A stretch of 9,467 nucleotides of DNA from a virus. Taxonomy: Duplodnaviria; Heunggongvirae; Uroviricota; Caudoviricetes. Of this stretch, positions 3,001 to 6,000 are shown piece after piece; the stretch's first letter is position 1, and every line of letters begins with the position of its first letter. The position numbers were made by a program. Location of the stretch: positions 1-9,467 of IMG/VR virus record IMGVR_UViG_2548876943_000010; one strand, 5' to 3'.

Positions 3001-6000
3001 TGGGCGCAAAATGACACGATCCATTGGTTCAAAACGACACGCTGTCATCGGGTCAAAATGGCCCAATGATCTTACAGAGAATACAACAGAGATTACTACA
3101 GAGAATAAAACCTCCGCTTCGCAACCGGATACGCAAACGGCTGAACAGGAGTTTTTAACTCGCCATCCTGATGCGGTTGTATTCAGCCCTAAAAAGCGCC
3201 AGTGGGGAACGCAGGATGATTTGACCTGTGCACAGTGGCTCTGGAAAAAAATCATCGCCCTGTACGAGCAGGCCGCCGAATGTGACGGCGAGGTGGTTCG
3301 TCCCAAAGAACCGAACTGGACAGCATGGGCAAACGAAATTCGCCTGATGTGTGTGCAGGATGGTCGTACTCACAAACAAATCTGCGAGATGTACAGCCGC
3401 GTCAGCCGCGATCCGTTCTGGTGCCGTAACGTGCTCAGCCCGTCGAAGTTGCGGGAAAAATGGGATGAGCTTTCCCTGCGCTTATCGCCGTCCGTCAGCA
3501 CGCACACAGAAAAACGTGAAGACCCGTACTTCAAAGCCAGTTACGACAACGTGGACTACAGCCAGATCCCGGCAGGATTCAGGGGGTGATCATGAGTCTT
3601 TTGAATGAAGTTCAGAAATTCATTGAAGCCCATCCGGGGTGTACTTCCGGAGACATTGCGGATGCTTTTGCAGGTTACTCACGGCAGCGCGTTCTGCAGT
3701 ATGCAAGCAAGTTACGTCAGAGTGGGCGTGTGGCTCACCGTTGTGAAGGAGATACACGCAGACATTTCCCGCGCCTGACTGAGAGAGCGAAGGAGCTGGA
3801 ACCACAACCAGTTCGTGAAACCAGACCTGTGCGCAATTTCTATGTCGGCACTAACGATCCCCGGGTAATTTTGTGCCTGACCCGCCAGGCTGAAGAACTG
3901 GAGTCCAGGGGCTTATACCGTCGTGCTGCAACCGTGTGGATGGCGGCATTCCGTGAAAGCCACTCCCAGTCAGAACGAAACAATTTTCTGGCGCGCCGTG
4001 AGCGGTGCTTACGGAAAAGCAGCAAGCGCGCTGTATCGGGTGATGAGTGGTATCTGTCAGGGAATTACGTGGGGGCTTAATGAGTAATAAATATTGCCAG
4101 GCGCTGGTGGAACTGCGGAACAAACCAGCCCATGAACTGAAGGAAGTGGGTGATCAGTGGCGCACGCCGGACAACATTTTCTGGGGAATTAACACCCTGT
4201 TTGGCCCGTTTGTTCTGGATCTGTTCACTGACGGTGATAACGCCAAATGTGCCGCGTATTACACGGCGGAAGACAACGCGCTGGCGCATGACTGGTCAGA
4301 ACGTCTTGCGGAGCTTAAAGGTGCTGCCTTTGGTAATCCCCCATACAGCCGCGCCAGTCAGCATGAGGGGCAATACATCACCGGCATGCGTTACATCATG
4401 AAACATGCCAGTGCCATGCGTGATAAGGGCGGGCGCTATGTTTTCCTGATCAAAGCTGCCACCAGCGAAGTGTGGTGGCCGGAAGATGCGGACCATATTG
4501 CTTTTATTCGCGGGCGTATTGGTTTTGAACTGCCAGCCTGGTTTATCCCGAAGGACGAGAAGCAGGTGCCGACAGGCGCTTTCTTCGCTGGTGCTATTGC
4601 TGTTTTCGACAAGACCTGGAAGGGACCGGCAATCAGCTACATCGGGCGCGATGAACTTGAGGCATGTGGTGAGGCCTTTCTGGCGCAGGTTCGCCAGCAG
4701 GCGGAAAAACTGGTCAGGGAGATGGCGGCATGACGACATTAACTCAATGCCAGCAGCAGGTGCTGGATATGCTGATTTCTTACCAGAAAGAACGTGGCTT
4801 CCCGCCAACCAATCAGGAGGTGGCAACCATGCTGGGATACCGTTCAGTGAATGCAGCGGTGGAGCATCTTCGCGCACTGGAGAAAAAAGGCTTCATCACG
4901 ATAAAGCGTGGCGTGGCCCGGGGGATAACGCTTCATACCGCGGTGAAGGACGACGACAGCGAGGCGGTCGGGATTATCCGCTCACTGCTTGCCGGTGAGG
5001 AAAACGCAAGGCTGCGTGCAACCCACTGGTTACATGAGAGGGGCCTGAAAGCATGAAGCTGATCCTGCCTTTTCCGCCCAGCGTGAACACGTACTGGCGA
5101 CACCCCAACAAAGGGGCGTTTGCAGGTAAGAGCCTGATAAGCGCGGCGGGGCGAAAATTCCAGAGCGCGGCGTGTGCAGCAATAGTTGAGCAGTTACGTC
5201 GTCTGCCAAAACCAACGTCGGCACCTGCTTCAGTGGAGATCGTGTTGTTTCCTCCGGATAACCGGATCCGCGATCTGGACAACTATAACAAGGCGCTGTT
5301 TGACGCCCTGACCCACGCGGGTGTGTGGGAGGACGACAGTCAGGTGAAAAGAATGCTGGTTGAGTGGGGACCGGTTATCCCGAAAGGGAAGGTCGAGATC
5401 ACTATCAGTAAGTATGAGAAACCGGCGGGTGCAGCCGCCTGATTAAGAGGAGAAACGAAGTATGAATAATCTGATGGTCATTGATGGTATTGAAGTTCGT
5501 CGTGATGCTTATGGTCGTTACAGCCTGAACGATCTTCACAGGGCTGCCGGTTCTCTGGATAAGCATAAGCCTGCATTCTGGCTCCGCAATGAGCAAACTG
5601 AACGTTTAATAAGCGAGTTGCAGATTTGCAACTCGGTCAATATAGAGCCAGTTAACGTTATTCGTGGCGGAAATAACCAGGGGACGTATGTCTGCAAAGA
5701 ACTGGTGTATGCCTATGCAATGTGGATAAGCCCGTCATTCCATCTTAAGGTGATCCGTACTTTCGACATGGTAACCAGCGCACCGGAAAAATTATCCGGA
5801 CAGGCTGCTGACAAGATGCAGGCTGGTGTGATTCTGCTGGACTTTATGCGTCGGGAGTTAAACCTGTCTAACTCATCTGTGCTTGGTGCCTGTCAGAAAC
5901 TCCAGGAGGCTGTTGGCTTACCGAATCTGGCACCGCGCTATGCCATTGATGCTCCTGCTGATGCACACGATGGCTCAAGTCGCCCGACACTGTCACTGAG

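Follow-up and report, generated by a model that had tools for sequence, protein, structure and literature searches.

A protease-less relative of LexA with a conserved helical hairpin, encoded between dam and rusA in lambdoid phages, and its possible action at SOS boxes

The DNA analysed was a stretch of 9,467 nucleotides from a virus of the Caudoviricetes (IMG/VR record IMGVR_UViG_2548876943_000010, positions 1 to 9,467), called the window below, and the subject of this report is a small gene within it whose 108-residue product resembles the SOS repressor LexA's DNA-binding domain. The list of open reading frames (ORFs), together with Pfam and PHROG matches, identified the window as a lambdoid early region overall, with the gene order cI, cro, cII-like, a 326-residue ORF, PerC-like, dam, lexA-like, rusA, KilA-N, DUF968/HNH and Q. 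The lexA-like gene starts with ATG and overlaps each of its neighbours by an ATGA. In gcATGAcg (4730-4733) the dam stop codon TGA occupies 4731-4733 and overlaps the lexA-like ATG, and in gcATGAag (5053-5056) the rusA ATG at 5053 overlaps the lexA-like stop. Upstream of the gene, the window showed no promoter-like site; the gene is without a promoter of its own there and is part of the early-right (pR) operon. Coordinates of the features are collected in Table 1.

The 108-residue product was matched by the Pfam LexA_DNA_bind profile (PF01726) with E=3.2e-19 and 68.9 bits (cutoff 23.7), protein residues 1-65 aligning with profile positions 1-65 of 65. No Pfam match to Peptidase_S24 (PF00717) was obtained in the product, and the same run detected S24 in the cI product of the window. 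The NCBIfam lexA equivalog TIGR00498 was matched over profile positions 1-91 of 203 only, with 70 bits, below its cutoff of 110.95 bits, and E. coli LexA structures were matched at E~1e-15 by HMMER. PHROG 362, a family annotated as "transcriptional repressor", was matched with E=2.8e-59 by residues 1-107 on profile positions 1-105 of 106, the C-terminal tail included. The protein belongs both to the Pfam LexA_DNA_bind domain family and to PHROG 362, and no difference was found between it and the PF01726-only members of PHROG 362. It is not a bona fide LexA: it lacks S24, it has no conserved scissile bond and its score falls below the TIGR00498 cutoff. Nor does it resemble a cleavable repressor of the CI/LexA superfamily, since the gene lacks HTH_3 and S24 and sits between dam and rusA in a nin-like region; the true cI of the window, which carries both HTH_3 and S24, lies elsewhere on the minus strand. 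An earlier note made from the sequence alone had described a LexA winged-helix domain lacking S24, with ATGA overlaps to dam and rusA, and had named the two profile searches and a structural superposition as checks. The overlaps were borne out by direct reading and the domain content by Pfam, by TIGR00498 and by the matches to LexA structures, and the predicted model superposes on DNA-bound LexA at 1.4 Å, as set out below.

The fold was predicted with AlphaFold2 (AF2), giving a mean predicted local distance difference test score (pLDDT) of 79.5, and the model was compared with the PDB using Foldseek. The predicted winged helix comprises helices at residues 6-22, 28-35 and 40-52 and strands at residues 56-59 and 65-68. 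The best match was chain 3jso_B, from a LexA-DNA complex, with a root-mean-square deviation of 1.4 Å over 68 columns and 48% identity. The N-terminal domain of E. coli LexA (residues 1-69; PDB 1lea, 3jso) accordingly has the same winged helix-turn-helix fold at about 48% identity. Weak matches to MntR (6kta) and MecI (1okr) were also returned, with template modelling scores (TM) of about 0.5-0.56. The MecI/BlaI, MntR/DtxR and MarR proteins share a similar overall architecture, a winged helix-turn-helix with dimerising helices, but have no sequence relationship to the window protein, whose DNA-binding domain is specifically LexA-type.

Contacts of LexA with DNA have been reported in helix III at Ser39, Asn41, Ala42, Glu44 and Glu45 (PMC3091678). 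Alignment showed four of these five base-contact residues to be present in the 108-residue protein (S39, N41, A42 and E45), with Val at position 44, and the wing residues R64-G65 of LexA to be present as well. S39 is invariant and N41 nearly so among relatives with as little as about 40% identity, and the recognition helix reads S-x-N-A-A-x-E-H-L across the family, the same as in LexA, with position 44 variable. The winged helix is predicted with high confidence to bind DNA. SOS boxes are the most likely target, and a probable one, because the winged helix closely copies that of LexA and the residues by which the CTGT half-site is read are retained in it.

E. coli LexA carries in its S24 domain the Ser119/Lys156 catalytic dyad, a dimer interface and the RecA-contact surface. 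The window protein is without all of these and differs further in having an extra 34-residue hairpin and in being encoded in a phage early operon. The tail was modelled as two helices, residues 75-87 and 93-103, with the turn A-G-E-E-N between them; pLDDT was 88 for residues 81-100, and the linker at residues 71-75 was modelled with low confidence. An amphipathic pattern (E78, I82/I83, L86, L87, A93, A97, W/F100, L101) is kept down to about 42% identity. The ratio of nonsynonymous to synonymous substitution rates (dN/dS, Nei-Gojobori) was determined for 65 unique coding sequences from a clade that shares about 45% identity with the window protein and came to 0.19 in the tail and 0.21 in the winged helix. 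On these values the 34-residue tail is regarded as a conserved protein module under purifying selection as strong as that on the DNA-binding domain, and not as a leftover.

LexA binds its operator as a dimer; the C-terminal domain provides dimerisation and self-cleavage, and on the operator the N-terminal domains touch each other (PMC3159453). With only the head left, two heads would have to be joined in some other way. In the mechanism proposed here the amphipathic hairpin, standing in place of S24, would pair two subunits for binding to a palindromic operator, probably by forming a four-helix bundle with the hairpin of the second subunit. The bundle is suggested by the amphipathic pattern and by the general instability of isolated two-helix hairpins, and tail dimerisation receives indirect support from other S24-less relatives, in which a single chain bears two LexA_DNA_bind domains in tandem. 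Dimerisation through the hairpin is favoured, though only slightly.

The tail also contains an AG dipeptide that the earlier note had found loosely reminiscent of the LexA cleavage-site context. The motif, SLLAGEEN, does exist, and the HMMER alignment places tail residues 78-90 on the hinge and cleavage-site region of LexA and pairs the AGE with LexA A84-G85-E86. The resemblance to a cleavage site did not extend further: in place of AG, close relatives have VG or AN and distant ones ER, TR, SG, DD, AC or AE, the prediction puts the dipeptide in the turn of the helical hairpin, and no catalytic domain is present in cis. The dipeptide was rejected as a cleavage site, and its alignment with LexA may, at best, be a vestige of the origin of the gene.

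Table 1 Features of the window (9,467 nucleotides), with positions counted from its first letter.
Feature	Position	Strand	Evidence
Gene for the 108-residue protein with a LexA DNA-binding domain only (PHROG 362)	4730..5056	+	ORF list, sequence, Pfam, PHROG
Codons 1-68, LexA-type winged helix-turn-helix	4730..4933	+	AF2 pLDDT about 80-85; Foldseek 3jso_B
Codons 39-52, recognition helix SVNAAVEHLRALEK	4844..4885	+	Alignments with E. coli LexA
Codons 75-108, conserved helical hairpin, proposed dimerisation module replacing S24	4952..5053	+	AF2, conservation, dN/dS
ATGA overlap, dam stop and lexA-like start	4730..4733	+	Sequence read directly
ATGA overlap, lexA-like stop and rusA start	5053..5056	+	Sequence read directly
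Near-consensus SOS box TACTGTTTTTACATACAGTA in the hinge-coding part of cI, candidate target	1134..1153	.	25.4 bits
dam, phage Dam-type N6-adenine methyltransferase (upstream gene)	4047..4733	+	Pfam PF05869 E=1.1e-45
rusA, RusA Holliday-junction resolvase (downstream gene)	5053..5442	+	Pfam PF05866 E=6.6e-15; PHROG 34
cI	670-1362	-	Pfam
PerC-family (YfdN-like) putative transcriptional activator, 164 residues	3586-4080	+	
DUF968/HNH-like protein	6262-7257	+	
141-residue ORF just past Q	8303-8728	+	
Weak tRNA-like match	8875-8934	+	Rfam, 37 bits; no ARAGORN call
STnc100 small RNA, full-length	9021-9211	+	Rfam, 138 bits

SOS boxes were scored with a weight matrix made from 27 E. coli LexA sites; its scores are relative only, with a training median of 20 bits. 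The box in cI listed in Table 1 was the sole exact CTGT-N8-ACAG in the window and the sole strong site by the matrix. When one mismatch to CTGT-N8-ACAG was allowed, six sites were seen against 3.5 expected, which is chance level. The cI box lies at codons about 70-77 of cI. In seven cI alleles with a protein identity of only about 70%, the arms ACTGT...ATACAGTA stay invariant whereas the hinge sequence around them diverges; the box is missing from cI types with only 35-38% identity. On the minus strand, the sequence TTTACC, a 17-bp spacer and TACTGT overlap the box. Read from the sequence, the site could be a LexA-controlled internal promoter yielding a C-terminal fragment of CI from Met92, or alternatively it could act as a roadblock to cI transcription.

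The same matrix was applied to phage genomes with and without the lexA-like gene. Boxes of at least 15 bits numbered seven in 1720a-02, four in mEp460 and three in each of Stx2c_2409 and Stx2c_PV98-693, all of which carry the gene; among phages that do not, lambda had one (15.6 bits) and HK97 and P22 had none. A tandem pair of strong boxes upstream of a dinI-like gene, together with a single box where the late-region methylase gene begins, was present in every scored carrier phage. By this sequence measure, and in a small sample, the carrier phages appear unusually wired into the LexA regulon, and their richness in SOS boxes provides plausible phage targets for the protein besides those of the host.

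The methylase box (TACTGTAAAAATAAACAGTG) is conserved and lies within the first codons of the late-region DNA methylase gene, downstream of Q; a box of this type recurs downstream in loci L095, L096, L097, L119 and L122. Boxes were located at 23255-23302 and 41021-41040 in mEp460 (L002), at 1292-1339, 31556-31575 and 46952-47075 in 1720a-02 (L001), and at 16747 and 49580-49627 in L129. Three additional boxes in 1720a-02 stand close to one genome end.

To cover divergent members of the family, 125 viral loci were gathered by single-protein queries, and reference proteins were mapped onto them. Most loci (type B, 95 loci, including the type seen in the window) have the order lexA-like, rusA, sometimes KilA-N, then DUF968 and Q, and the junction of the lexA-like gene with rusA was an identical 4-base ATGA overlap in 95 of the 95 loci scored. 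A sister clade (type A, 28 loci) has an SOS box, usually a DinI-like gene, an ORF termed orfX, the lexA-like gene, a 67-residue ORF, DUF968 and then usually a Q-like gene, and RusA is missing from these loci. The type A protein belongs to the same PHROG 362, tail included (profile positions 3-101). The gene consistently stands just upstream of DUF968 and Q.

In type A loci a near-consensus box of at least 17 bits was present within 300 bp upstream of the first operon gene in 25 of 28 cases and within 2 kb in all 28. The type B background was 13 boxes of at least 17 bits in 922 kb, seven of which lay inside cI homologues. The upstream region of locus L106 shows, in order, a terminator, TTGACC, a 17-bp spacer, TATACT overlapping the box TACTGTTTATTTATACAGTA, and an ORF of the DinI family (Pfam E=8e-22). 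Judged from this arrangement, the gene of the type A clade would itself lie in an SOS-box-controlled unit, as lexA does, and it is physically linked to dinI.

The type A loci are L094-L120 and L127, with the operon at 4297-5527 of L106 as an example, and the DinI-like gene is absent from some of them. Their orfX encodes 101 residues and belongs to PHROG 1813 without a Pfam match, and the 67-residue ORF belongs to PHROG 1212. The type A LexA-like protein has an N-terminal extension of about 30-60 residues. In several loci another SOS box lies about 480 bp upstream of the first.

The lexA-like gene is present in 2233 of 5426 complete E. coli genomes (41%). A protein identical to that of the window, named "LexA family transcriptional regulator", is encoded by 109 contigs. 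Copies with 98-99% identity were found in phages mEp460, 1720a-02, Stx2a_1447 and Stx2a_WGPS2 and in Stx2c phages, in the same dam, lexA-like, rusA order and with the labels "LexA DNA binding domain protein" and "repressor, lexA family"; some copies are wrongly labelled "SOS-response repressor and protease LexA". The PHROG 362 family occurs in lambdoid phages of the SfV, mEp460, cdtI and Stx2 types. In a survey of Stx phages the family appears as "pham 237, pfam01726", with no functional work and lumped with cI-type repressors (PMC8136144). No experimental study of the enterobacterial PHROG 362 family was found in the literature, where only genome catalogues were encountered. That the gene exists, and how it is annotated, was known before, and there is a published precedent for a phage head-only LexA homologue. 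Four features appear to be new: a hairpin tail that is conserved and selected, the retention of the residues for LexA specificity, a coupling to rusA that is universal, and a recurrent genomic link to SOS boxes and dinI.

Further S24-less LexA derivatives are present in public data (P0139, P0152, P0172, P0131, P0147, P0134). Some, of 160-220 residues, contain two tandem LexA_DNA_bind domains and are single-chain pseudo-dimers; others, of 78-127 residues, consist of a bare single DNA-binding domain without the hairpin tail.

In the interpretation preferred here, whose chances are considered about even, the product is a LexA surrogate that is insensitive to RecA and acts on SOS boxes. The proposal of a non-cleavable SOS-box occupant that modulates LexA-controlled phage or host promoters is consistent with the recognition residues, the wiring of the sister clade and the box-rich carriers. 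A dimer of the protein would sit on SOS boxes and resist removal by activated RecA; DNA damage could not inactivate it, because it has neither a catalytic domain nor a conserved Ala-Gly site. The earlier note had offered an uninducible SOS repressor, and as a standing repressor in a lysogen this had to be set aside: without its own promoter and within the early-right operon, the gene would supply a protein that acts after induction or infection. The window version would be made only from the pR operon, translationally coupled to dam and rusA, and the lack of its own promoter together with this coupling points to a delayed-early product. Its likely role would be to re-repress SOS-box promoters once the LexA of the host has been destroyed, re-closing both the host SOS regulon and the SOS-box sites of the phage, namely those at the dinI-like gene, the late methylase and cI.

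The benefit to the phage is a matter of speculation. Silencing of SOS-induced functions that cut phage yield would be one possibility; the LexA-regulated toxin TisB is reported to prevent prophage induction via ATP depletion (PMC12626290). Silencing of LexA-controlled antirepressors of rival prophages and a timed shut-off of the SOS-box genes of the phage itself are two further candidates.

Several observations weigh against the LexA-surrogate interpretation. The comparison of box numbers involves four carriers, of which three are independent because the Stx2c pair is near-identical, and three non-carriers, and it is confounded by shared ancestry; the scores of the matrix, moreover, are only relative. 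The contact residue E44 is replaced by Val or Ala in the family, and specificity could shift with it. Apart from those inside cI, SOS boxes are missing within ±5 kb at about 80 loci of the largest clade. The upstream SOS box of the type A loci shows at most control by host LexA and not binding by the phage protein. Finally, the sole characterised truncated phage LexA homologue, gp6 of the Bacillus thuringiensis tectivirus GIL01, is an activator with a changed site.

That homologue (Fornelos et al. 2018, PMC6182141) binds the diverged palindrome GaCACAnnTGTGaC at -43.5, overlapping the -35 region, and activates the late promoter P3 (PMC6182141). It resembles the window protein in being a phage-encoded LexA DNA-binding domain without S24, and it is the precedent for an alternative in which the LexA-derived domain controls a phage-specific promoter, for example in the nin, Q or late region, as activator or repressor at a non-canonical site and with little effect on the host SOS regulon. 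Such a role would suit the fixed position of the gene just upstream of DUF968 and Q, the replaced E44 and the lack of a nearby SOS box in most loci of the largest clade. However, gp6 is essentially a bare DNA-binding domain of diverged specificity, with K38 as its key residue, from a tectivirus of a Gram-positive host, whereas the window protein keeps the LexA recognition residues, has the extra conserved hairpin and belongs to lambdoid phages whose late genes are already controlled by Q. The diverged recognition helix typical of gp6 was not found in the window protein, and across the family this helix is near-identical to that of LexA. No alternative conserved palindrome was identified, though no de novo motif search was made and sites of the gp6 type were sought only via the SOS-box scans. 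The recurrent link of the gene to an SOS box and dinI also fits SOS-box recognition better, and a gp6-like regulator is considered unlikely, if still deserving of weight.

The strong selection on the tail would also be expected if the hairpin docked on host LexA, on RecA filaments or on a phage partner such as RusA or DUF968, the protein then serving as a decoy, or as a tether bringing its partner to SOS-box DNA, and not as a simple repressor. The HMMER alignment of residues 78-90 with the LexA hinge and cleavage region, the universal ATGA coupling to rusA and the co-occurrence with DinI, a RecA-binding protein, can all be read in this way. Against this, the AG and the LexA-like hinge similarity vanish in more distant members, the segment is predicted to be helical and not strand or loop, the sister clade is without RusA, and no partner-binding motif was identified, all of which leaves such a modulator improbable. 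The last alternative, a decaying and functionless remnant of a captured lexA, is invited by the truncated appearance of the gene and by the many database entries of the family that are partial or frameshifted fusions, but it is effectively refuted by a full-length protein conserved to relatives at about 42% identity in fixed synteny, by a dN/dS of about 0.2 in head and tail alike, by the conserved coupling overlap and by the presence of the gene in 41% of complete E. coli genomes.

DinI and PsiB are anti-SOS factors that act on the RecA or LexA protein. The LexA surrogate proposed here would resemble DinI-like proteins, plasmid-encoded PsiB and GIL01 gp7 in its outcome, a host SOS response damped or reset by a mobile element. 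It would differ from them in acting on operator DNA, and it is unrelated to them in sequence. DinI-like genes co-occur with the lexA-like gene and share its operon in one clade. GIL01 gp7, by comparison, stabilises LexA on its operators (PMC6182141). A more tentative extension, held possible but short of probable, is that the surrogate and the phage DinI-like proteins constitute an anti-SOS module, present in about 40% of E. coli genomes, that re-closes operators opened by RecA.

If such a module exists, its trigger would be prophage induction or, in the sister clade with its own SOS-box promoter, SOS itself. It would shut off host functions harmful to phage production, namely SOS toxins of the TisB type, colicin lysis genes and the LexA-controlled antirepressors of rival prophages, and it would re-time the SOS-box genes of the phage, the conserved cI box included. 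The SOS response and Stx-phage induction would then come under a second layer of control that does not depend on RecA. RecA-independent re-repression of this kind would revise the view of SOS dynamics in carrier strains of E. coli, Shigella and Shiga toxin-producing E. coli, affecting SOS duration, mutagenesis, persister toxins, colicin release and the cross-talk of co-resident prophages. Induction of Stx2 phages might be affected too, since Stx2a and Stx2c phages carry the gene. The 12-kDa protein would also represent a compact route to a dimeric operator-binding protein from the LexA head alone. Were it instead to act like gp6, it would still mark an uncharacterised point of control in a type of lambdoid early region that is very common.

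Among the neighbouring genes of the window, the 326-residue ORF has no Pfam match and occupies the slot where lambdoid phages have a replication gene. The PerC-like gene lies upstream of dam, its 3' end overlapping the longest dam reading frame (GTG 4047), and in most related loci a PerC-like gene is likewise found upstream of the lexA-like gene. Of the genes downstream of the lexA-like gene, the one for the DUF968/HNH-like protein is the most constant companion, standing always just before Q in both architectures. PADLOC returned no meaningful match, hence no membership in a defence system is assigned. ARAGORN detected no tRNA after Q in the window, where the weak tRNA-like match of Table 1 is situated, and the full-length STnc100 small RNA also lies downstream of Q. 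The 141-residue ORF just past Q has a lipoprotein-like N-terminus (MKKVLIAAIGFCLVGC) and a moron-like position, and the annotation of mEp460 also has a hypothetical ORF directly after Q.

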